A DNA stretch of 50,942 nt, from the NCBI GenBank assembly GCA_004298075.1, contig SCRK01000054.1, positions 1 through 50,942 on the forward strand, in the 5' to 3' direction. Positions 6,001 to 45,000 of the stretch are shown piece by piece (positions within the stretch are counted from its first letter, which is position 1; each line of letters begins with the position of its first letter). The translations under genes were made by a program, and so were the position numbers. Under the pieces are notes generated by a model. It did not search any database. It was given only the letters and a program-made list of their open reading frames with translations, and was not told the origin of the DNA. Source of the DNA: a bacterium (GTDB taxonomy: Bacteria; Omnitrophota; Gorgyraeia; Gygaellales; Profunditerraquicolaceae).

Positions 6001-9000
6001 CCGGCTCCGAAGCAGAGGCGAAGCAGAGGCGTCAGCAGATACTTGATTGGTTATGGCCGGGCAAAATGGCGCTGGCAGAGGATCATCAGGAATTCGGGGC
6101 GGATCTGCACAAGGATATTCTTTTGAAGACTTTTCAGTCTCCTGCTTCAATGGTTGTTATTTTGATGTCGGACCTCCTTAATCAGGGCGAAGAGGGGCGC
6201 ATTAATAACCCTGATCCTAAATCAAGCCATCCCAATTGGCGCGCGCGCATGCCCAAAGAGTGCACTATAGATGACTTGCTGGGGGCGGTTCGGAAGAAAG
6301 CCGTTACGGAGAAGGCGCAAGTTGTGCCGGATCTTTTGAATTGGCTGCTGGAAGAATCCGGGCGCAAAACCGCTGCTTCTTCCGTATGCGTAACCTCCGG
6401 CATTTCCTCTTGCGGGCAATCTCCTGCCGGCTGCCTTTTGAATACGCGCTTATCTATCACAAATTCAGCAGCGCACTCACGTCTAATGATCAATCCGCAG
6501 AATGAACTTTCAATCTTGTTCAACGCCTCAAGCGGGATCGTGCGCGCGGGGCCGGTAACTCCAAACTTGTTCACTTCCGGCGCATTAGCCTTGGCAAGTT
6601 CCCCTCAAAGCGATCCAGAGCCAAAGAGCGATGACGAGCAGTTAGGGCTGGTTGCTATCTTCAGCGCCTTAACCGAAGGCTGCGTATATGATCACAGCGC
6701 AGGCCAATTTACCGTAAGCCCCGAGAGAATAATACGGAATTTGGAGAGCGCCGAAAAGAGCCTAACTGCGCTTAATATCCCCTCAACAATATATGGGCAT
6801 GGATTTTCCACCCAGCCTCCAATTATTTCCCGCCTGAACCATGGATTAGACTATCACGGCATCCATAACATGATCCAGGAAGACAAGATCGTTAATATCA
6901 GCGTTAAAGATTATCACATGCTGAAGAAATTATTGCCATTTTTAGGGGAGCTAAAAAATGAAGAGGCACAGTTTGGGGCGGGCAACTTAGATATCCGGGG
7001 CATTACCTCTTATTTTGAAGCGAAAGCGTTAGGGCGCTGTTTATATGACGGAGGCAACCTGGAATCATTTATGAAATTGCTGGAAAAAGGAGAAAAGCCC
7101 ATACTTGGAGATTACCTTAAAGGGATTTTACCTGATTTTGGCGTGAGGCCGGAGGATGGTTTTGAGATCATTGACGCGCGCGAGATAGATAAAAGGCATA
7201 TCTTCCTGACCGTCCTCCTCCACGGCCGTACCGTAATTTCCCTGACTATGGGGTATCCGACCAAATACGCCGACTACGAGTATGAAGGAAGGACCATCCG
7301 GCAGAGGGAAGGAGCCGGCAATGTTTTTTCACCGGATTTCAACGAAGAAGGAAGGCCTGTTCTTTGTAAAGGAATAGACAGGGAGCGCCTCAAGGAGAGC
7401 ATTAAGCGTATGCATGAAAAAGGGAAAAAGGCGCTCTTTGATTTCGTTGCCTGGCCGTCCATAGCTTTTCTCAATGATGATACTTACGTTTATTGCGTTC
7501 ATCATCCTGTTGACCGGAATATGCCGGATGAGCGTTTACTTAGCGAGAGAGGATACAAAGGAGTAAGATTGCATTTAACTAACGGCGACAAAGTCTACGT
7601 GCAAAGAAGAGGAGAGGGCGAGTCGCAGGATCAGTTAGACCCGAATTTTGATCTGCGCACACCTGTCAACGGAAAATTGGAGCCGCCGGGGTATTTCTGG
7701 CAGCGTTTCTATACCCGTTGGATACTCTACCTGATCAAGGAATTCGGTTTTGACGGGGCAAGAGTTGACCTGGCCCATAACTTGAACCACGGCGGAGACT
7801 ACATCATGTTCCAAAGCATACTTTTTAATGTTAAACGCCATGCCTGGATAGATCTTAGAAAGAAGGTTTTCTTTATTCTCGAGACCTATAGGCCTGAAGA
7901 CCGCGATATGTTTGAGCGTTGGAACGGAGAATATTGGTCAAGAAGAGGAGAGCCGTGGCTTAATCAGCTTAAAGCTGATTTTGTGGCGATGAAGGATAAA
8001 ATACGCCATCACTTCCTGACCTTGCAGGACCTTTTCTCGAACATTTTCGGGAAGGAGCTGGGGATTTTAAAGGAGCTGGGAGAAGGCCTTATAATGGGCC
8101 AGGACCGTGAATTTCAGGCATTCCAGCACGATTTCACGGCAACATTAATGGCCTCCGGAACTACCGGGGAGCGCTTACGCAAGCTTGCGGATGGCCAACA
8201 GGATGAGGTTCCATATACCTTTATCCGTTCATACTTTAAGGGCGTCTACGATAATATTGAAAGGCGGGAGTCGGTGGTAAACTTGATGAATTCGCTGGAA
8301 TGGTTCATCAACAACCGCCATAAACTGGTGCTCGTGATCGCTAATTACGATGAACGTTCTTTGGTGGATCTGATACCGGATGAAGCTGTACGTCTGGAAT
8401 TCATTGAGGTGTTCCTCTATTTCGTAAAAGCAGGTTACGATGTGCTTATTAGCTTCCGGGATATTAAAGAGCAGGTAGGGGAGAATATCCCTGTTCCCGG
8501 AGGCAAGGGCACGGTAATAAACGGAGATGCCGATTACATCGTTTGGGAAACGCATCGTCATCCCCCGCAGGCCGAATTCATAAGAAATCTTGAGGTTCTT
8601 CTGGGGGATCAATTGTCCGAGGCGCGTTTTTATCAAAAGATGACGGATACGGAAGATATCAGGATAGATGAAGTTTCCCTGGATAGAGGTCAGAATAAGC
8701 TTGTATTCAGAAATGAGCATAAGGATATCAGGGTATTTGATCTCGCTTCGATGATGGAGCGTCTCAAGGCCTCGTCTTCTATTACGGATCCATTAGGGTT
8801 GCGGCAGGGTGAAATTATAATAACTGGTTACCTCTCCGTGGCTGGTGGGGACCAGTTCCCTGTCGCAGCCCTTTCAAAAGGTTCATCTTCTGCTTTGCTG
8901 TCCCTAAGAAAGGTAATACTCGTAACAGCCATTCTCGGCAGCATACTTTTATTCGGTCCTTTACCTGCACTGACCGGTTTGTGCCTGGCGGTCCATATCA

Positions 9001-12000
9001 GCCTATCTCGCAGTTTGCTTAGGTCCAATAAAGAATTCAGGGAAAATAGGCCGCAAAAGCCCGTGAAATTAGCAATAAAGTACGCGGGCAGGAAAATACT
9101 TAGGAATGTCAGGATTAATTTTACAGAATTATCTAAGAAGATCAAGCAGCATCTTGCCGCAGAATCAGAAATCGGGGCAAGCATGAGCGTCATTCAGGAA
9201 AAGTTAAATAAATTCCAGGAGCTAAAAGAAAGCTTAATCAATTCGATATTAAATGAGCACATGGCGACAAAAACGGTTTGTCTTGCTTTATTGAAAAAAG
9301 TCCAGGAAGAATGCCCTCTCACTGAAATAGGCTCTGAAGGCGTCTCTTCGGCCGCCTCCAGTCCTTTAGCTACGGTATACCCGGCTTTTACCACCGTAAG
9401 AAATAGCGAGAGGGGGATGCCGGTTGTAAAAATCACATTGAGAAATACCGACAAGAGAGGGAGTCTGCTTCTACCGGACGATATAAAAGTACTTAGTGAC
9501 ACGGCTTATCCAATCAATGAATTAAACGATATCCGCATGCGGATAATAGATACTTTTGATGCTGTTTGGCCGCTTTCGGAGAATCGCCCCATTATGGAGC
9601 GCAGCTTCATTATCCATCCTTGTCTTCCCATACGTGGTCACCGCGATCATACCTATTTGTGCGTCAGCACTAAGAATAACTTTTACTTGGCTCACGCTCT
9701 TTTCAGGCAAACCCTGCCTATTGAATTTAAGCAGGTTGTTTTGAAGTATAGAGGCTGGCGTACCTTGACCTTTGAAATACCTTTAGAGATATTAGAAAGT
9801 CACCGCTTAACTCTATGCCAAAGAGAAAAATACGGGATAATCTCGGAAGATGACTGGATTGCGGAATTACTGGAATACGTGAGGTTTAAGATATTTGTTA
9901 TCGGCGAGGAATTCACCCGTTCTCCATTCACCCGGTTCAGCGCTTCGCCGCTGGAGGGAGGGATGCAGAATTACTTTGTGAAAACCGCGGGAAGAAAAGG
10001 GAAAACAGGGCCATCAGCTTATTCTTCTTTTTCTGCGAGATACGATTATGGAGCGTTGGTAATGGGATTGTATAGATTTGAAAGGATAAATGGGGGCAGC
10101 CCAATTCAGGATGGGAGAAATTATCCGGAGCTGCGCGCTAATATCGCCAGAATCTTAGGGAAATCCGGATATCCGGCCCTGGCGGATATATTTTTTGATA
10201 CTTCCTCCCCGCTTTCAGCAAAAATGGCAATCCAGCAAACTCATGTAAAGAAATTGCAAGTTTGGCAGTCTAAATATGAAGATTGGAATGAAGTCGCGGA
10301 AATTGTCCCGGATTTAGTCAAGTTCAACGGCATTAATGGTTATGGGCGTTATCTAACGGAGGATGAGATAAATGCTTTGGCACAAAAAGTGCAGAACGGT
10401 AATAAAGCTGCAAGAGAGGTGCTCATTCTGACAAGGCGTGCCCAGGTTGCCGGCGCAGTAGAGAGATTTATTTTTGAGAATCCCTGTTTTAGTCGCGATG
10501 ACAAAGATGACCTTATGCAAATTGCAACATTCGGCAATGGAAAAGGCGTTGGTGGTCTTGCCCGGGCAGTAGAGCTTTTTGACCCGGATAACGGAGGGCT
10601 TTTTTCTGCATACGCTAAAATGTGGATTAAGTCGGCCTTATCACAAGGATTGCGCAGGCGGTTAAAGAACAAAGTGCGGCCTTTTGATTACGATCCGAAT
10701 GGATCCCGGGAAGGCGGCCCGGTTAACCGCATATCCGAAACAAAATGTTTATTTGAGGATGCATTGGAAGCTGATCTATCTGCGCATTTGCAGGAAGCTA
10801 TCCGGTATTTATCATGGACAATCTCGGCCAGAGATAAGGATATTTTAATTAGCCACATTAATGACGAGTCTAACCCCGCTATAGGTAAACGTCATAAAAT
10901 AAGCAATGAGAGGGTCCGGCAGATATTAGATAGGACGACGCAACAGCTTAAGGAGATGGTCCGCTCTGGCAAATACGCATTGATAAAGGCATTAGTTGGC
11001 ACGAAGGTGAGTGTTCCGGCAGTAAGCAAGCAATTTAATATCCCAGCTACTACACTTTATGTCCGGATTAAGGCCCATGGCATATCCCTGCCGGAATTGC
11101 GCAAACAGCTCATTTTAGAGTTAGGAAAGAATACGGGATTCGAAGCGGATGAAATGGCCGCGGAGCTTGGCATAACCAAAGAGTCTCTCTTTGACAGAAT
11201 GAAAAAACTGGGTATTCCGTGGCTAGAGGCAAAACATGCTTACGAAAAAGAATGGTTAATGCCGGCTTTAGCCAGTTGCGGAGGCAATATCTCTGAAGCG
11301 GCCAGGAAGCTTGTTATTGCCGAACAATGCTTACGTAAAAAGTTAGAGCCGTATAAATCAGAGCTAAAGGAAATGCGGCGCCAGGCTCTATTGGAAAGAA
11401 GAGTGGCAAGAAGAATGACAATCCTGCATGCCCTGGATGAAGCTGATTACAGCGTACCGCGTGCCGCGGCATTATTAAGCATGAGTACCGACACTCTATA
11501 TCAGAACATAAGCGATTTGGGCGTTGATTTAAATGCAGGAAAGAAAGCACGCGATAAGAAATGGCAGGATGAGCAGAGAGCAGAAATAACCGCCGCCTTG
11601 GAAGCAGCCGGATATGATATTTCCAAAGCAGCGAGGATGCTCGTGGTAAATCTTAACACCTTGCGTTGGCGAATAAAGAGCCATAAGATTGACGTGCAAA
11701 CTGGAAGGCAATCATATCTAAAAAGAATAAAGGCGGAAGAGCGGGCGCGTATTACAGAAGCTCTCATCTTTTGCGGTAACAGGGTAAGCCTTGTTTCCCG
11801 GTTCCTCAAGATCTCCAAAGATATTTTATATGATAGGATAAAAATTTACGGTATCGATATAAGCAATAAAGAACTCCTCAGACAGATTAACCATATTTTT
11901 GTTTCTAGCTTGTCTTTGCCGCCTTTAGTTGAGGACAATGCTATTTTCCCGGTGGTCGATTCGCCCAGTACAAACCTTTTTAAGCTCATAAACGAAACCC

Positions 12001-15000
12001 CCGAGTTCCTTTATCCGGGCTGTAGCGCTTCGCCCGTAACTTTAATAGGAGGAAAATGGATAAGTCAAAATAGCAATGAGATATTAAATATCGCGATCCA
12101 AGAAGATTCTGCGCCGGAATTGGTCATGGATAAGAGCGATAGCATGGAAAGAATAGGGAAGGTTGATTTCCACATTATTAATAAACTGGATATTCAAGTA
12201 ATAAATATCGAAATTGAGGATGTATTCTTAGGCAGAAAGCATTCATATGATCTTCTTGATTGCCTATTTTTATATTATTATCTGCAGGGGGCGTTTTCTT
12301 TTGAAGTTGTGAAAGTTCTTAATCCCCTTATCGCAAGAATGTTAATTAATATATATGGCTTTGATGCATATTTTAAGGACCGCAGAGTTGCTGCGGTTAT
12401 TGGAGAGAGCAAGGAGGGGGGGAAGGCCCAGATATATTTTGAGGATTGGATGGGTGAAGATATTCTGGAGAGGAATCTTTATGTAGGAGACATATTATTG
12501 GAATTAGAGGTTGTACAAAATACTCCCGTGCCCGGGACTAAGATCTATATAGGAGACCGCTATCATTTAAGGGACGAAGTACTCTTTAAGTCCAGGATGC
12601 AGCAGGTTATACGCAGGTGGACTGGCATCAGCGATTTTATGGTAAAAGGACCAATCGGCTCTTCCCCGCTTGCCTCCGCGCAAGGAGAGAGAAGGAGCGC
12701 AGAAGGGCTCCTGCCCAGTCTTTCCATTAAAAATGGCGCCAGGGTAGTAAAATGGGATAATTTCTACGAACTCGTATGCGCTTCGCCGGTAGTTTCTCCT
12801 TTCCGTAATTTTCTTTCTCATGCCCAAAGGACAAGAGCTTTGTTCAGGTCTATATGGTCAGCCAATGCGCCTCCGCTGATTATCGCCGCTATTTTATCAG
12901 TGTTTCTTTCTGCTCCCGCCTCCGCCAATTATTCTAAAACTTCCACAATCCCTTCAAGAGAGGAGTTAATCGAGAAGATAAGACAAAATGATGCCGATAA
13001 GATACGCCTTCTTGATGTCCTCATCAAATCCGGTTTAACCAGTGAATTAGCAGAAGCCATAATTGACCTTAAGATAAGCTGGCAGCAGGCATATGAGCTT
13101 GGCTGCAAGTTGCGGGATAATTACAAAAAAGGCATTTTAATGCTTACCGGTGGTAGGCTTCCGGAAGCAAAGGAGGTATTCTTAAAGATACTGGGCATGG
13201 AGAAAAGAATCGCGCCCGTCCATTATTCTTTGGGGATAATAGAGCTCGCCTTGAATAATCCCGAAGAGACCAGGCGCTACGCGGAAACAGCGATAAAATT
13301 GGAGCCGGGACATCCGCTAGGATATGAGTTGTTAGGGTATGCCTACATCGCTTTGGCCGTTAAAAAAGAGCAAGAAGGCGCAAGCTTGAAAGAAATTATC
13401 TTCTGTTATCGGCAGGGTATTCATAATCTAGAAAAGGAGATAAGATTGTTCCCTTCATCGGGGTATGGTGTTAAAGACCTGATAGGGAAAGTACGGGAGG
13501 TTATCCAGGGGTTGGAGGGCACATCTCCTGGGAGGCAACCGCTAAAACATGGCCCTGTTTTGAAAGAGAATAAACCGCAAGACAGCCCTGACAATAACCG
13601 CCGTAGCGGCTCCTCGCCTATTTCAGTAGGATTTCTGACAATCCCTGATTATGCGGATATTTTAGACACTATTAAGGCGATAGGAATGGCGACGAGGCAT
13701 TATAACGAGAGACAGTATCGTGCTATTAGGCGCTTTTCGGTTCCGGAAGGAAAAGTCGTTTGCGCTTCGCCGTTGGCATACGGGAAATATCCCGGTATCC
13801 CCTTCTACCCGGTTGGGATACCCGTTGATCTGGATGATTATTTTAAACTGCACTATCCTCGCGGTTTCAGTGTAAAAACTAAGGTAGCTTTTGTCAGAAT
13901 AAAAGATGCGCTCAACCTATTCTTGCCGGATGATTTTAGCGCAATATTAGAAGGAAAAATCAACCATATCCTGAAGATCGCAAAAGGGTATTATCCTAAT
14001 GGTCCTTCTCGCGATGGGCTGGTATTTAAAACCCCCGGTATAAGCTTAACCCGTATGAAATCCATGGTTATTACGACTGATATAGAGTCAAATTTTAGCG
14101 AAAGTTATTTAGAAGGCTGCAGTTTAATCATTCGCCTGGTCCGTCAGACAGAGTTGCTCCTTGATATAATCCAGGCTGGCTCGCAAGAAGACGGCATAAT
14201 AGTGCGCGCAGGATCCCCCCTGGGGAATACTCGTGATGATTTATTATTTGCTCTGGATGGCTTGCAAAAAGAGATCGGCCTTGAAATATCTCTTCTGGTT
14301 CTGCGTGTAGGTCTATGGTTAGGCCTGCCGATAGAGGAATTTTCCGCCAATGCTGAATCTCTGGTTAAGGGGATGAAAAGTTGGGATAGCCATAAGAAGA
14401 TCGCCATATTTTGGGCTTTAAGGGATTCCGCGAACAGGCTCCCCAGAGATGATGAAAAATCCTTACCCCTGACAATAGCAAAACCTTTGTTTGATTTAAG
14501 CGAAAATGAACTAAGCGCATTGAATATGGCATTGGCAAATTCCGGTTGGAAACTCCACAGGATCGGCGAGGGTTCGGTAGAGTTGATGCCGGCGGCTATA
14601 TTTGTCGTAGAGGACCTGATCAAGAAAGAGCTTGGCGAATATGAATACGAGAGGTTATTCGGGATTTTAGGCAGGTTCAATGACTTCAGGGAGAAGTTAC
14701 TAAGATTAGCCGCTATTGGCAGGGAACTTGCTGGCAGCTTAGAGCCGGAGAGGCAATTCTCTTCTTCCTCTATCGGGGTATCTACCTTTGAGCAGCCGGA
14801 TTTTGAAGAGTTATTTTTTAACCACTCTAATCTCGAGCGGCTTTTTAATTCCGGAGAGAGGCAAGTTATATATTTGGCGGAAAGAGGCTGGGGTATAGGC
14901 GAGATTACGTCAATAGGCGGGGCTTTACCGAAGATAAGGTTCCCAAGCACAAAGCCCGCAGAGAGGGAGTTCAATAGAGCCGAGATATTAAGGTCCGGTC

Positions 15001-24000: not shown

Positions 24001-27000
24001 AGGGGAAGCCTCTTTATAAGGTGGTGCGTTTTAGAAAGAAGCTTGCTTTGCCGTCTTTGTTTGTGTTTGAGACGGCTTACCAGGTATTAACGGCCATGGC
24101 GTTTCTTTACGCTAACGGTCTTCTCCATGCGGATATTAAATTAGAGAACATATTAATTACCGAACATCGAAAGGTGAAGTTAATAGATCCCTGGTTTAAT
24201 ACGGGAGAAGCTGATTTAGAGGTCCTGAAATCAAAGTGGGAAGAGAGGGCATGTTTTGAGAATCTTGTGTGGTGGCTTTTGTATGAATTCAGGCTAAGGG
24301 AATTCCTGGGGTCGTTTGAGCCGGTTATTTCCGCGCTTATGGAAGTGGGGCCTCATAATCGGCATGAGATAGGCAAGCTGGAATCGGAGGTTTTAAGGCA
24401 TATAAATCTTTTGAAAAACCACGGCATTAAGATTAATAATTTTGACCCCAATTCTTTAATTAACCCCATATATTCATGTTGTGCCTCTCCGCTTAGCGCA
24501 GAAAATCTTATATTATCTAGAGAAGCAAGGGATATTTTGGGCGCGTATCTCGATGAATGCATAGATACCTGTCGTAAATGTGTGCCGGGGAATTCCCGTA
24601 AAGTTATCATAAAGGAGAATAAAATACTTAAAATGGTGATGAGAAGGTCGATGGATAGATCCGTATGTTATTTCGCAGGCAGATATCCGGACTCTAATTC
24701 ACCAGAAGATTATATTAAAAGATATATAAGGGAGGACATTTACTTTAGCTCCATGATAGTAAATATGCTTGATTTCCTGGAAGAATATATTTCCACAACC
24801 TGGTTGTTCCGCTCCGCGGAAGGGTGGATGGATGAATTAAAGGAATATTTTGATGGGTTAATTGTGAAGAGAGAAAACGCGAATGATTTCCGTATCGATG
24901 TGTATTCGTTGGGAGGTTCTTATGGGGACGAGGCCTATAGCATTGCTCTCGTTTTATATGAGTGCCTCGACAGGTATGCGAAAACGCGGCAAAGAGAGGA
25001 TTCGTGGATCAAGAAATGGCAGGTGGGGATAGAAGTGCTTGACCCTAATCTGTTTGCGCTCCACCGCTTCATGGAGCGAAAAAATATTTTACTCGCGAAA
25101 AGCAGCAAATTAGGCATGTTGGGAGATTATCTTGGATATGCGAAAGCAAGAGAGGTCTTTAGCCGGATTAAGAGCTGGATGCAAGCCAGCGCTGTCTATT
25201 TTTCTCCCGGGCTATTTTCTTCGGGAGATGAGGTGAAAAAACTTCTTACCGTATCCAATACGCGCGTAGATGTTATCTTTTCTCTCAACGTTTTGCCTTA
25301 TATCGGCTATCCGGCGATGCAGGATTTATCGCATAGCGTGAAAGAGGGCATAATACTTAGCTTAAAAGGTAACCCAGATTCGGCGCGCTGGGTAACTAAT
25401 TATCAGCTTGACGGACCGGCGCAAATATTCAGGGTCGCGCAGGAAGAAGTGACGCGTCTGCCTAATAAAGCAGGACAGCTAAGACTAAGTGCCTCACCGC
25501 TAAGGTCCGGCATATTTTCTTCTTTCTCAATGGATATCCTTCAGCCGGTATGGCGTCTGACTAATCTCGTGATTGTTTCTTCTCTGTTATTTCTTAATCC
25601 CTCCTACGCTTCTATTCTTCAGAGGCATCCCGTTAATTTAGATGGGGAAAGGACCATCAAGATGGCCATAGGGGTAAGCGAAGGAGTTTGTTTAGAACCG
25701 TTATTAAGAAAAATAAATGTTCCTGCGGATATTGCCAGGGCGATCAGCCGGCTGCCGGCAATAACTCCGGCTAAGGCCATGATCATGTGGAATGTCATTC
25801 TTTTGAAGCCCCAGAGGGTTATTAGCGGCAGCTTGCCGTTTGAGCCGGGAGGCTCCTCTAGCCCGATTTACGCAGGCAAGGATATCTTTGATATTTATTC
25901 TCTGATGCTTATCAAGAGCGATCCCTTCGCTGTCTACCCGGCGATACAAGACCCCGGTCTCTATTTTCATATAGGGCCTATTCTCGCATATCCGAAAGAG
26001 GACAAAAAAGAAGCGGCTCAATTGAAACCTGCTTACAATCCCCCGAGGAAAAGAGTCCCCTGGACGGCTAAATATAGAGAATGGGGGATAATTAAGGAGA
26101 TTATCCCCGACCTGGTCAAGCGCGACGGGTTTATTAGGGAGAAAAGATTTTTAGATGATTATGAAAATCTTATGTTATTCAGAGAAACGCAAAAAGGCAA
26201 CGCGGCTGCCAGAGAAACCTTGATTATGGCATATCTTCCTCTGGTCTACGGGAGGGTAAAAAGGTTCATCGGACTTCATCCTTACTTAATTAATGACCGG
26301 GACGATCTGGTGCAGGTCGGCATTTACGGGAACCATATGATCACGGGAGGGTTTGCCAGGGCAGTGGAGCTTTTTGAGGCAAGAATAGGCTGGATGGGCT
26401 TCTCACACTATGCCACGCGATGGATTGACGCAGCCATGTTGGCGGAGAAAAAGAAGAAAGATAGAATACTCAGCAGGGAATCCCATTTTGATCTTGATCC
26501 GGAGGAGCCTAATAGAAGGGAACCGCTTGAGTTAATACCTGACGAGAATGATTTATTCGAGAAGATAGAAGAGGCAGATGCCTGGTCCGTATTTTTTGAG
26601 GCACTTGAGTATCTCAAGTCAATGATCTCGGAGAGGGACGGCGATATGCTGGTAAGCAGGCTTGCCGAAGAAAGCCTGGTAAGCGTCGGGAAACGTTACG
26701 GAGTATCGCATACTCGTGTTAAGCAAATTGTGGACCAATTAAAAGTGAGGTTAGGTGAAATAATTTATTCAGGCGAGTTCCGCAATGGCCCGGATGCCCT
26801 TCTTAGAGTTTCCAGTAACCTGACTGCCGCTTCTCCCCTTGGAGGTCCAATAGAATGGTACATTCTCCGCAATGAAATACTTTCGGAACCGGTCATATTC
26901 GGCAATAAATTTATACGCAACCATGTCAACCCCTTATCAAGAGAACTGACCGTTGCCGCGGGCTGGGCAGGCACGGATATCGCGAATCTCTGGCTGGCAA

Positions 27001-30000: not shown

Positions 30001-33000
30001 TCGGGTGCTGGGATAATCTACTTAAAGAAGTAATTATCCGCCATCTTAAGAATCCCCCTTCAGAAGTTACCGACCCCAGGAACTCAAAAGAGTGGGAGAG
30101 GGCCGGTTACTGGCAAATGCTGCATTACACAAGGAAGCTTTTAGGAGGTTGGATCAATGCGGTTAAGGCTGCCGGCTATGAGCCTATAGAAAGGAAGGAA
30201 ATAGACAAAAAGAGGACCAAATGGACTCCGGAGGCAATCGATAATCTGCTTTTAAACCCTCCTTTCGATATTGCAGACCCGCGTAATTCACAGGTATGGA
30301 TGGATAAGGGGTATTCGCAACCGGTACACAGGCTCATAGCTACTTATGGCAGTTGGGCCAACGCGCTTAATAAATTCGGCTATATGGCTATTAGGAGACA
30401 ACATTCTCCCTGGCAGGCAAGATATTCGGACTGGAAAAAGGTGGCAGCAATAATACCGGGAGTAGTTTCTGAAAGCGGAATTTTAAGCACGAATGGGTAC
30501 CGAAAATTGAACGATAATGAAATAGCGCGTTTGATACAGGAAGTACGGGATGGCAATGAAGCCGCGAGAGAAGCTTTGATAGTGATAGTAGGGCTTCGTA
30601 TCGTTAAAAGCGTTGCCTGGAGTTTCCGCCGCAGCCCGTTTTTAGGGGTAGATGACCTGGTTCAGGCGGGTATTTATGGAAGCGGCAGAGGGGTGGGAGG
30701 ATTTGCCCGCGCGGCGGAAATCTTTGACCCAAACAGAGAGGGAGGATGTAAATTTACCAGCTTTGCGAGAATTTGGGCTAAGTGGGCCATCATAGGCGAA
30801 TTAAAAAAGGACAGAAGGCCGCAAACTTTTTATCTGGATGACCCTATTAGAGGCACGCTTACCTTTTTCGATATATTACCGGCAGAGCAGGACTTATTTG
30901 CCGATGCAACAGGAATTCTTGAGTTGACCGAATCAATGGAGTCTTTGTCTTTGCTGTCTTCTGCGCCTTCCGTAATCAGTTCTTCCCCGCTGGGTTTGCC
31001 CGCCGAAGGTAACCCATCCCCATGCACTCTGTCTATTAAAGAAACAAAAATATGGCTTGATCAACAATTTAATAGAAGCCCGTCTTTCAACGCAGCAATA
31101 TCTTCCAGCAGCCTTCTGCGCGCTCCTCCACCGGCACTTGCCTTAGTATTTATGCTGTTTTCTAACCTTCCCGCTTTGGCTAGCCTGCCGGCCTCAGCTT
31201 ATTCATATCAATCCATCCTAAAAGAAATAAACGCGACCCTCGAAAATCAGTATCTTAAAGACAAGGTCGCTTTGTTATTGACCGGGATTTTTGGGGTTCC
31301 AGAGGATATCGCCAGGTCAATAGCCTCTTTGGATGGCATGAATACCGCAAGAGCAGCCGGTATTTGGCAGAAAATAAGAGAGGATTATTTGGCGGCGGAG
31401 GACTTCTTTAAAAAAGGCGATTTTGACGAAGCCGTAGATTCCTACTTATCTGTATTGATGAAAGAACCGGATCTCCCCTATATATCTTTTCGCATAGCGC
31501 AGGCATTTTCCGCCGGTGTTGAAGCGGGATGGGGCCAGGAGAAGGGCGGAAAGATTCGCCTTTACTATAATAGCCTTATTTACGCGGATATGGCGGTTAG
31601 CAGGGGTTATCAGGAGTTTGACGTTTATTTGCTGAGGGCGGACATCTTGCTCCGTTTAAGCAGGTTAGAAAAAGACAAATCACAGTTGCTGGAAGCGAAA
31701 GATAACCTTGAGAAAGCGCTCCAGCTAAATCCCGCGTTAAGGCCTCAGGTTGAAAAAAGCCTTGAGTATATTAACCACAAACAACGGGAAATAAGCGCTT
31801 CTTTGCCCGGTAGCTCGCCGCTCAAGAATGAAATGAGGTGGAGTAGCGTAAAAAGCCTGTATTTACCGGCTGACTGGCAGGTGCATACAAACAGGATCGT
31901 TCTGCAGTCCCGGGGTTCAGAGGCGCAGATTACAGAGTTGATTTCAAATATTCCGCCCGACATTCAAGTTGCCGTGGTTGTCAGTCGGCAGTTCCTTGAA
32001 CATCATTCTTCCGCGTCATTCCAAGCCTTGCTCCGGGATGATCCTCGTTCCGAGATCATCGCGGTAAACGGGAATATAGGTATATTCGCGCGGGACAACT
32101 ATCTTTTTACCCTTTCCGAAGAGGGGCCTGTTCTGCTTACTCCCTGCTACGACCTTGAAAGGAATATCCCGGACCAGGATGGCGAACAATGGGTTGCCGG
32201 TTCTTTGGGCATAGAGGTCAAGAAAGCTGATTTTTATTTTGAGGGAGGGGATGTTCTTCCTGCCGGAGAGAATATCTTCGTGGGGGAGAAGGTGATCGCG
32301 CGCAATCGGGAGTATTTTGCTTTGACTGAAAAGCAAGCCCTGGAGAGGATAGCGAAATGGTTCCCTTATCAGGAGGTCGTGCTCTTCCCGTCAATGAGAA
32401 AGATAAGGGGATATTTCCATTTGAATACTTCGGTGACCTTCCTTCCCCGTAAACGGGCGGTCTTAGGTGATGTTAAGCTGGGCTTACGCCAGATAGCCGC
32501 GTTGAGCAGGCGCCAGATTATGCGCCTGGATCCTCTATTTGAGAGCCTATGGACAAAAAGGTGCTGGCTGGCGGGAGGAATAGCCAATTCCGTAAGAAAC
32601 CGTAAAATATACGCGCAAAGGGAAGAGAAATTAACCTCGTTGGGCTACTCCGTTATTCCCGTCCCATGGTATCCTCCACATGAATTTATCCACACAGTCC
32701 CTAATTACAATAATATAGTCTTCCTTGGGGAGGATCTGGCCCTGCTGCCGGTATTCGGGGTTCCCGCCGACGCGCAGGCGACGAGGGCCTATAGAGATAA
32801 TGATATTGATACTATAGCGTTAAACTGGTCGGCTTCGGATTATCAGGGCAGAAACGGTTATTGGCGCTGCTCCATGAATATTGGCGGTATTAATGAGCCG
32901 GCGGTATTATCTTTGCTACCAGGCATGGCCTTTATGCCGGAAGTTATCATCGGCAGGATAAAGGAAAGCGGGCCAGCTTCGCGCAAACCCGTCACATGCG

Positions 33001-42000: not shown

Positions 42001-45000
42001 AGGTTTACCCCTGCTCCCATCTTAGTTATATTGGCGCGGAAAGCTTCGGGCCTTTTGAGGATGATTCTTTGTTCAATTTAATGTCCGGTGCACGTAAGCA
42101 GCAGCTGATTGCCAGGATTACTTCTCAACCTACTGAAATTGTCTGTTCTCCAAGAAGAAGCAGGATAAATTCTTTTTTTGATAGGATAAAGAGTGGTAAC
42201 ATCGCCGCCTCGCCGCTGGCGCAAGGGCGGGGACAGTTCTATCGCAACTTATTGTCAAGCAACGCATTAGGCAGAAACGGTCTTGCGGGCATTTCGCATG
42301 TCCGGAAGGAATTTTTGCCTGACTTGGGTATAAGCGCCTCGCCGCTGGCGCAAGAGTCGACTTTAACGGCATCTCCATCATCAATAACAATTACTGGACA
42401 TACTGGTGATATTGGAGCCACACTATTACGATTTGCCCTAAATAGAAATTTAGCAATACATGTGCTTGCTAGAGAAGAATCCTACCATAAGTCTCTCTCG
42501 CTATTCCGTGTAAATGGAGAATCTATAAAGTATCATAGGGGAGGTTTATTATCTATATCGGCAATAAGAGAAATAGTCTATTCTACCGATGAATTATTTT
42601 ATCATCTCGCCGCAATGGTCAGCCGGGAATTTAGTCCTGAACAAAAAGCCCTGGTGTTAGCAATAAATGGTTTCGGAACAGGGCTGATTGTAAAAGAAAT
42701 AAAAGACTATAATAGAAATATTAGGTTCATTTACGCGTCCAGTCAGAGAGCCTATCAATTGCTAAATCAAAAAGAGGTGACAAAATTTATCCAAAAAGCC
42801 TATGAGAAATTTAGCAATGAAATAGGACCTTTTTTGAAATCCCCGGATGAAGTAGTCAAAGAAAAGATATTGGCAATAAGCCAATCTTTATTAGATGATC
42901 TTCCTCGGAGTGTAAATATTTACGATATTTCAAAGTTACTTGGCGAGAAGTTTGCCGAAGACCTTCCTAATATTGCGATAGCTCGCATTAGTAATGTGTA
43001 TGGGCCGGGGTTTGCAGGAAATAGATTAGTGCGAAGGCTTATCGAAGGCAGGTTTTCTACCAAAGGTACAAAGGTAGTTAATGAAACAAGAGATTATATT
43101 TATTCACATGATTTAGTTGAAATATTGTTCAAAATTGGCGCTAGCACTAATTTACCGAGAATTATCGATATTGCAACCGGAGTGCAAGTTACCATCAAAC
43201 AATTAATTAATATTATATATAAGTATACCCAAGATTGCCTGGGAGTATTAACTCCCGCTGGTACACAAAAGTCTACTTTCAAGCAGAGCGGTGATATTGC
43301 CAGGGAAATATTAGGCAGGGACTTTGAGGACTTGGAAAACGGACTGGGAAATACTATAGATGACTATAGATTAAGAGATACATTGAGCTGCGTTCATTCA
43401 GATCGCGATATTGCTGTTTTTGATATCGGAGGCGCTTCAGTGCGTACAGAAATAGGCCCTCATAATAGCTTTCTTATTAAAGCGAACGCTTTAGAAACGA
43501 CAAGATTTACGAATTATTTTACTACAGATATATTTAGTGAAACTAATGACATATTGGCTTCCCTGTGTGAAGGCAGAAGGATCTCAGTTTTCGTTGATGC
43601 AGCCATATTTGATTTATATAAAGATGCAATAAGCAGCTATTTAGTAAAACATAATATCGAATTTACTTTGTATTCTTGTGGAGGCGGAGAAAGTAACAAG
43701 AACCTGGAATCGGTTTTTTGGATAATTGATACAGCAATGGAAGATGGAAGGGATCGTAAAGCAATTTTTGTGGTAGTGGGGGGCGGTGCATTAATGGATG
43801 TTGTAGGGTTAGCGGCTCAGCTTTACAGGAGAAAAATAGATTATATTAGGATTCCTACTACTTTGTTAGGGCTTGTTGATGCAGCGGTTGGCATCAAGGT
43901 AGGAGTTAACTATAGGGGGCATAAGAACTTCTTAGGCGGTTTCCATGCTCCTCACGCCGTTATTAGCGATCCATCTTTCCTTAGTACTTTGGACTCAAGA
44001 CAAATGAGAGCCGGGGTAGCAGAAATAATAAAAATAGCGATAGTTTCCGATAGGGGTCTTTTTGAAGAAATTGAACAATGGGGAAAACAGTTAATTAACA
44101 ATGAGCCATTTCCTAGGAAAGATGAAATCATCAGGCGGGCAGCTGTTGAATTAATGAAATATCTTCAGCAAGATTTATATGAAAGAGATCTAAGGAGATA
44201 TCCGGATTTCGGGCATACTTTTGCCCCTCAAATAGAAGATATAAGTAGCTATTCAATATTGCATGGAGAAGCAGTAGGAATAGATATATTACTCTCAAGC
44301 CATATTGCGATGGAAAGAGGCATTTTGCCAACTTTTGTTTTTCATCGGATTGTCAATCTGATTAGAGGCTTGGGGTTACCTTTATTTGATGATTCAATTG
44401 ATTTTGATGGAATATGGAATAGCCTCGAGAGAACTATAGCTCATAAGGGCGGCAGGCTTTTAATGTTAATTCCTAAAGATATCGGCCAAACAATATTTAC
44501 TAATTCTTTATCCCGAGGTGAAGTTGATAGGGCCCTGGCTTATTTCAAGAAATTACATGAAGGGGAAACTGTTTCTAGCGCAATCGGAACAGCGGGCTGG
44601 TTGGTCAGCCGCAGCGCCTCGCCGCTGGCCGAAATTAGAAGTAGAGAATACTGGTTAAATATAGGATTGATAGAATCTATTTTCTATGGGATAGGAGTGA
44701 TAGTGGGCAGTTCGCGGTATTTGTCCACGGGCAGTAGATTTGTGCCTCTGGACTATATTAGCGACGTGGATGTTAACATTATACTAAACGATAAAGATGC
44801 AGATGCAGTATCGATATTTGGTGGTGTTCCGATAAGAATAATATATCCTGCTATTGAAAGAATAAAGAATGATTATGGAGCAGAAATAGAGTGGGAAGAT
44901 CCCTGTAGACTGGAAATTAAAATTCCTAACAAGTATTCATTTTATTTTCATTTTTTAGACGTTTCCTCTGTTGATCACATAATCAAAAATTGCATTTACG

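Follow-up and report, generated by a model that had tools for sequence, protein, structure and literature searches.

A signal-peptide-like leader at a cassette boundary in a giant, possibly polyprotein-like open reading frame of an Omnitrophota bacterium

A leader with the layout of a Sec-type signal peptide lies not at the translated N-terminus but at residue 4276 or later of a giant uninterrupted reading frame, twelve codons behind a short peptide motif that recurs throughout that frame. The frame fills a stretch of 50,942 nucleotides (hereafter called the window), positions 1 to 50,942 of contig SCRK01000054.1 (assembly GCA_004298075.1), which belongs to a bacterium of the Omnitrophota family Profunditerraquicolaceae. 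Frame 3 of the plus strand runs from 3 to 50942, i.e. 16,980 codons without a stop, and is open at both ends of the window; all other frames contain hundreds of stops each. The features described below are all on the plus strand. Our main subject is the module at 12792-13622, which carries the leader close to its N-terminal edge and continues into a domain that resembles tetratricopeptide repeats (TPR). We tentatively read it, with a confidence that falls a little short of an even call, as a secreted-type cassette of a polyprotein-like giant, with a functional Sec-type signal; its cleavage, a candidate type of protease and its export we infer.

The leader and its paralogues

The leader, RTRALFRSIWSANAPPLIIAAILSVFLSAPASA, occupies 12828-12926 (residues 4276-4308) and is followed by NYSK. 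Its n-region RTRALFR (12828-12848) contains three arginines and no acidic residue, its hydrophobic core PLIIAAILSVFL (12873-12908) is 12 residues long, and its c-region SAPASA (12909-12926) places proline at -4 and alanine at both -3 and -1. The predicted signal peptidase I site falls between ASA and NYS, with a +1 residue other than proline. Upstream, the leader is separated from the motif copy ASPV (12780-12791, encoded by GCTTCGCCGGTA) by a twelve-codon stretch, VSPFRNFLSHAQ (12792-12827), that contains no in-frame start codon. ASPV in turn closes a unit of 40 residues, counted from behind an SSPL motif (12660-12671) and comprising a 36-residue stretch and ASPV itself, that directly adjoins the module (12660-12791 with both motifs). 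A Tat signal was considered and discarded because R-T-R is not a twin arginine, and a lipoprotein signal because no cysteine follows the core; a cut by signal peptidase I inside the motif itself was likewise discarded, as proline would occupy the +1 position.

A preliminary description of this DNA had claimed an n-h-c leader with an A-x-A end twelve codons after ASPV, and a recurrence of the arrangement at 30993-31823. The coordinates and sequence of the leader proved correct, and the recurrence is real: the module at 30993-31823, bounded by SSPL on both sides, is exactly 277 residues long, as is the module at 12792-13622, and the two are 24% identical (E 3e-4). This paralogue has a TPR_11 match of 27.6 bits, just above the cut-off of 26.8, and its own leader, ending in RAPPPALALVFMLFSNLPALASLPASA before YSY, at 31119-31199 (also given as a stretch ending in ALALVFMLFSNLPALASLPASA before YSY). 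A third and shorter paralogue of 122 residues, bounded by ASPL and SSPI (25503-25868), also has a leader, WRLTNLVIVSSLLFLNPSYA followed by SIL at 25554-25610 (also given as a stretch ending in LVIVSSLLFLNPSYA before SIL). The hydrophobic cores of the three leaders are PLIIAAILSVFL (12 residues), ALALVFMLF (9) and LVIVSSLLFL (10), a single arginine stands just ahead of the core in each of the two other paralogues, and the cleavage-like sites are ASA before N, ASA before Y and SYA before S, with small residues at -3 and -1 throughout. At an identity of 21-26%, the three modules have all retained a charged start, a short core and small residues at -3 and -1. Behind the leaders they also have in common the pattern G[LV][TP]x[ED][LI]A[ER][AS]I...L (approximately 13030-13080, 31240-31290 and 25660-25720), which to the eye suggests a helix-hairpin-helix but for which Pfam returned nothing at E values up to 1.

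The position of such leaders relative to the motif is not confined to one module family. Scanning the frame for n-h-c arrangements returned eight independent first hydrophobic elements, six of which start 4-47 residues past a motif (p = 2e-4). The leader cores of 9-12 residues lie within the span of about 7-15 residues usual for Sec-type signal peptides and compare with uncharged runs of 18-29 residues in the clear transmembrane helices of the same frame; clear helix clusters lie at residues 7327-7410 and 7744-7850. Behind the leader of the 30993-31823 paralogue there is no convincing transmembrane helix for about 2,600 residues, a stretch that includes a NUDIX domain; weak hydrophobic stretches are present between the leader at 12828-12926 and a downstream RelA/SpoT domain. 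The preliminary description had framed the matter as an either/or, in which the module acquires a free N-terminus or acts as a membrane anchor. This was the right question, and the evidence leans towards a free N-terminus because the cores are short, the leader sits just past a cassette-boundary motif and no return helix follows the paralogous leader for some 2,600 residues. The choice was incomplete in that, as flavivirus polyproteins illustrate, an internal signal may initiate translocation and undergo cleavage by signal peptidase although no N-terminus is free.

A motif at the boundaries of protein-sized cassettes

The boundary motif has the consensus [S/G/A/C]-[A/S]-S-P-[L/V/I], a conserved stretch about six residues wide with a small residue in front. 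The core pattern [AS]-S-P-[LVI] occurs 50 times in the frame, or 2.9 times per 1000 residues, against 0.08 per 1000 residues in 148 ordinary proteins, which makes the rate in the frame about 35 times higher; the looser pattern [AGS]-S-P-[LVI] occurs 54 times, and ASPL alone 24 times where 0.39 copies are expected. No copy falls inside a Pfam match, whereas random placement would put 8.6 copies there (p about 1e-4). The family profiles start or end close to motifs, as they would at natural protein ends: the HAD match begins 17 residues and the epimerase match 12 residues past a motif, and two HATPase_c matches stop 3 and 11 residues short of one. The pieces from motif to motif have a median length of 267 residues, and the module at 12792-13622 is exactly one such unit of 277 residues, from ASPV to SSPI.

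Two further properties of the motif copies deserve mention in their own right. In 6 of the 54 copies the residue immediately before the motif is cysteine, compared with a background frequency of 1.2% (p = 5e-5), for example at 12777-12779 and 13761-13763; these copies read VCASPV, VVCASPL, RICASPL, SCCASPL, GKCASPL and VSCSSPV. The copies also change along the window, with more SSP[LVI] and varied codons in its 5' part; the last 14 copies, between 38859 and 50942, are nearly all ASPL and include nine identical 12-mers, GCCTCGCCGCTG, between unrelated modules. Differences in age among the junctions, or gene conversion, could account for this gradient. The last base of the window is the last base of a GCCTCGCCGCTG copy (50931-50942), which may be the end of a contig at a repeated junction or a coincidence (about 1 in 1,000).

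Conservation of the motif has a peptide and a nucleotide side. Among the in-frame 12-mers that differ from KCYTCGCCGCTG at no more than two positions, 34 of 35 keep the peptide, and the serine codons of the motif alternate between TCN and AGY; taken together these observations argue that the peptide itself is under selection. Codon choice is nevertheless far from neutral. Alanine is encoded by GCC or GCT in 26 of 26 cases (51% in the background), serine by TCG in 50% (10%), proline by CCG in 69% (34%) and leucine by CTG in 55% (18%); this bias is common to the window and its closest relative, and the third positions of the two codons upstream of the motif are pyrimidine-rich as well. Recombination or gene conversion at the junctions as a source of the bias would fit a shuffling of cassettes. 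No Rfam family matches at the motif, nor does it show any special RNA structure, a slightly lower folding energy being accounted for by GC content. Internal translation starts were ruled out, since neither methionine nor Shine-Dalgarno-like sequences are enriched after the motif.

Relatives and the shuffling of cassettes

The only clear relative found is a locus, here called L001, in the metagenome-assembled genome JBAZTA010000002.1 of Candidatus Omnitrophota, which is one open frame across 20.7 kb and is 44-51% identical to the window over single modules. Its 6,906 residues contain 12 motif copies, six of them ASPL where 0.13 are expected, and its HAD match starts 4 residues past ASPL. A fragment of a further frame, P0010, contains ASPL twice and TSPL once. 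Modules that are homologous among the window, L001 and P0010 start right after a motif in each of them, and the upstream neighbour modules and the module order differ among the three, which indicates that the units are shuffled cassettes with the motif at the seam. At two positions where the window has an intact motif the relatives carry degenerate copies, ASAL in L001 (20288-20299, residues 6764-6767) and SSSL in a second fragment, P0001 (residues 122-125), so that loss of the motif is evidently possible at some junctions. Scans of metagenomes and viral sequences with an alignment of the sigma-70-like modules described below returned unrelated ordinary loci or nothing, and a search of viral contigs for an exact 20-base junction gave a single chance match.

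The module behind the leader

The predicted mature part of the module is an all-helical, TPR-like domain (12927-13523), followed by a 33-residue tail rich in proline, serine and asparagine that is predicted to be disordered, with a predicted local distance difference test (pLDDT) score below 50, and that ends in SSPI (13524-13622; SSPI at 13611-13622). Downstream stands a short motif-to-motif unit of 51 residues that ends in ASPL (13623-13775; ASPL at 13764-13775). The AlphaFold model of the module has nine helices in residues 56-243 and a mean pLDDT of 62, and the first 56 residues are modelled with low confidence. The TPR repeats that had been proposed behind the leader are only weakly backed. 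When 1.84 billion representatives were searched exhaustively with phmmer, residues 4353-4463 matched about 190 TPR proteins of a generic kind (E 1e-13 to 1e-3); the best TPR_2 match (13215-13313; 21.9 bits) lies below the Pfam cut-off of 27, and the best Foldseek matches of the model, TPR domains as well, are weak (E 0.03-0.2), none of them reaching 0.001.

A stand-alone homologue of the module was found neither in a library of 5.8 billion proteins nor in the library of 1.84 billion, where the phmmer search returned generic TPR matches and the frame fragments P0001 and P0010 only; this makes it probable that the leader was kept while the module was already part of a fusion. The sigma-like module likewise has no homologue among the 5.8 billion proteins, although its counterpart in L001 is 44% identical, and it thus seems that giant frames are missing from that library.

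A possible route from giant frame to exported domain

The proposed mechanism starts from a giant gene made of protein-sized cassettes with a motif at each boundary, in which the cassette at 12792-13622 would be a secreted-type, TPR-like protein whose N-terminal edge still bears a Sec-type signal peptide. The boundary motif, located in exposed linkers, would serve as a protease recognition site, and the protease may be subtilisin-like, given that A-S-P-L resembles the site A-S-P-R of NisP. A cut at ASPV would leave the leader about 12-30 residues from the new N-terminus; alternatively, the leader could act as an internal start-transfer signal that is recognised during translation, as happens at the flavivirus C-prM junction. 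Signal peptidase I would then cut between ASA and NYS and free the TPR domain outside the cytoplasmic membrane, and a cut at the downstream SSPI would retain the following modules, which are of cytoplasmic type, inside the cell. A wider generalisation, towards which we lean more to doubt than to belief, is that some Omnitrophota express dozens of ordinary proteins, cytoplasmic, membrane-bound and secreted ones alike, in the form of a single giant polyprotein cut at [AS]SP[LVI], so that internal signals become working N-terminal leaders, and that the 12-base junction also acts as the seam for in-frame shuffling of cassettes between giant genes.

Several observations weigh against this scheme. 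Neither Pfam (E up to 0.01) nor a PDB sequence search revealed a protease domain anywhere in the 16,980 residues. Eight of the motif-to-motif pieces are only 36-73 residues long and have no family match, and two of them flank the module in question (12672-12791 and 13623-13775). Conversely, a motif is missing between certain fused domains, for instance between the epimerase and the cyclase and within a 1,735-residue piece. The 27 residues in front of the hydrophobic core, and the 47 in the paralogue, are long for a signal peptide. The strong codon bias points to a constraint at the level of the nucleic acid that a pure protease-site model leaves unexplained, and the comparative support comes from one 20.7-kb locus and one fragment of 935 residues.

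Alternative explanations

The same features could be reconciled with a giant that remains intact, in which the leader is an uncleaved membrane anchor and one of several helices, the TPR module lies outside but tethered, and the motif is a linker or a modification site. In published topology predictions such giants do appear as single, membrane-anchored chains with numerous helices; the clear helix clusters of this frame are in keeping with that, and the weak hydrophobic stretches ahead of RelA/SpoT could restore topological parity. We nevertheless regard an anchor as unlikely. The cores of the three paralogues are too short to cross a bilayer when set against the clear helices, and the small residues at -3 and -1, together with the proline just before them, are kept though an anchor needs none of these. 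In addition, some 2,600 residues including the NUDIX domain would sit outside the cell after the leader of the 30993-31823 paralogue, and a passive linker needs less than a specific five-residue motif. A history of fusion, by which the cassettes were once separate genes, the leader is a functionless leftover and the motif a fusion or recombination junction with uniform DNA, would draw on the cassettes shuffled among genomes and the motif at their seams, on the nine identical GCCTCGCCGCTG copies between unrelated modules, on the codon bias shared with L001 and on the low confidence with which the N-terminal 56 residues of the module are modelled. This account is improbable in our judgement, given that charge, short core and small -3 and -1 residues persist in three strongly diverged paralogues, that two very large protein libraries yielded no stand-alone homologue, that motif variants are almost all synonymous with serine switching between codon families, which speaks for selection on the peptide, and that both full-length paralogues are motif-bounded units of precisely the same length.

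The codon bias, which far exceeds the background (alanine GCY in every case) and is the same in L001, and the abundance of pyrimidines in third position of the two codons ahead of the motif speak for an explanation without any protease. Here the 12-base KCYTCGCCGCTG would act on RNA or translation, by a pause, RNA processing or stop-free release and restart, yielding separate proteins with the leader at an N-terminus. Such a signal is very unlikely, since the motif has neither an Rfam match nor structure beyond the effect of GC content, neither methionine nor Shine-Dalgarno enrichment follows it, no conserved upstream peptide of the kind needed for 2A-type skipping precedes it, and copies with quite different codons, such as TCCAGTCCGGTT and GGCAGCCCAATT, keep the peptide.

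Other modules of the giant frame

With at least 10,000 codons and many different enzyme domains as the hallmarks of the class, the 16,980-codon frame (3-50942) encodes a member of the giant multi-enzyme proteins known from Omnitrophota, and its relative L001 is likewise fully open. A Pfam search returned about 20 distinct and unrelated families, most of them diverged: GH77 4-alpha-glucanotransferase, sigma-70 regions with a Fis-type helix-turn-helix, HAD hydrolase, RelA/SpoT, HD, Ser/Thr kinase, CheR, two HATPase_c, TPR, NUDIX, radical SAM, nucleotidyltransferase, PIG-L, and an NAD epimerase with a dehydroquinate-synthase-like cyclase. No protease of the MARTX, C39 or S8 type that could act in cis was found within the window. 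The reverse strand contains no competing gene, its frames reaching just 63-86 residues, and around the module neither promoter-like sites (11 against 5.8 ± 2.6 in shuffled sequences) nor terminator-like sites (4 against 3.3 by chance) are clearly above chance.

The sigma-70-like module is present in three paralogues (10215-11012, 26013-26840 and 30336-30992) that are 35-40% identical to each other and 42-44% identical to L001. Each copy has one of the three leader modules nearby, which recalls a sigma/anti-sigma gene pair, and the third copy is without region 4. The epimerase and the cyclase form one motif-bounded unit of 760 residues (42348-44627), an NAD-dependent epimerase and a sugar-phosphate cyclase with no motif between the domains; the cyclase matches PDB entry 4p53 ('Cyclase') at E 7.8e-72, and dehydroquinate synthases match it less well.

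Implications and comparison with known systems

Whether the products of giant Omnitrophota genes work as one chain or are cut up is a standing question, for which the motif and its trailing leaders provide concrete and testable cut sites. The giants could be split at the motif into cassettes for structure prediction, and the protease could be sought through its co-occurrence with the motif. If the processing is real, genes would be expressed in a way for which cellular organisms offer no known example and which would parallel that of viral polyproteins; it would at the same time provide a mechanism by which whole proteins are shuffled in frame.

Giant multi-enzyme proteins of Omnitrophota, from genes of up to 147,000 codons, are already known (West-Roberts et al. 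2023, bioRxiv 10.1101/2023.11.21.568195; Nielsen & Lui 2026, bioRxiv 10.64898/2026.06.07.730766). The frame described here is like them in its stop-free length of more than 10,000 codons, in its many unrelated and diverged Pfam domains (HATPase_c, HAD, HD, radical SAM, NUDIX, TPR, HEAT) and in its scattered hydrophobic segments, and differs in that its leaders occupy fixed positions past a conserved motif. These papers report no boundary motif and state that the cleavage points are unknown; one of them drops internal signal-peptide calls as artefacts of chunking, and giants of this kind have been reported to carry S8 and C39 domains elsewhere. A boundary motif and cassette shuffling came up neither in the main papers on giant proteins nor in full-text searches.

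A resemblance, and only that, links the motif to the site of the NisP/LanP proteases: NisP cuts after ASPR (PMC5812297), and the site (G)ASPR has the identical A-S-P at P4-P2, a small residue in front and an exposed setting. It differs at P1, which is arginine in nisin and leucine, valine or isoleucine here, and no S8 domain was found in the window. Flavivirus-type polyproteins are also long products with internal hydrophobic signals, and at the C-prM junction the protease site lies on the cytoplasmic side and the signal-peptidase site on the far side of a single segment (PMC3437442, PMC6756788), the same layout as is proposed here. They are, however, viral products of about 3,400 residues that mature at the eukaryotic endoplasmic reticulum (ER) with a known protease, in contrast to a bacterial chromosome, a product of at least 17,000 residues, modules of housekeeping-enzyme type and a protease and processing that we infer.

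Two further bacterial systems bear comparison. MARTX toxins are large multi-module proteins that are cut after leucine in the linkers between modules by their own cysteine protease domain. Unlike the cassettes described here, their effector modules are delivered into host cells and they are not known to have a conserved S-P core; no Peptidase_C80 domain was found in the present frame. Cyanobactin precursors of the PatE type consist of variable cassettes flanked by short recognition sequences for subtilisin-like proteases. Although these cassettes are peptides of 6-8 residues and not whole enzymes, their recognition sequences resemble the boundary motif in being conserved even in the DNA and in allowing cassettes to be exchanged.

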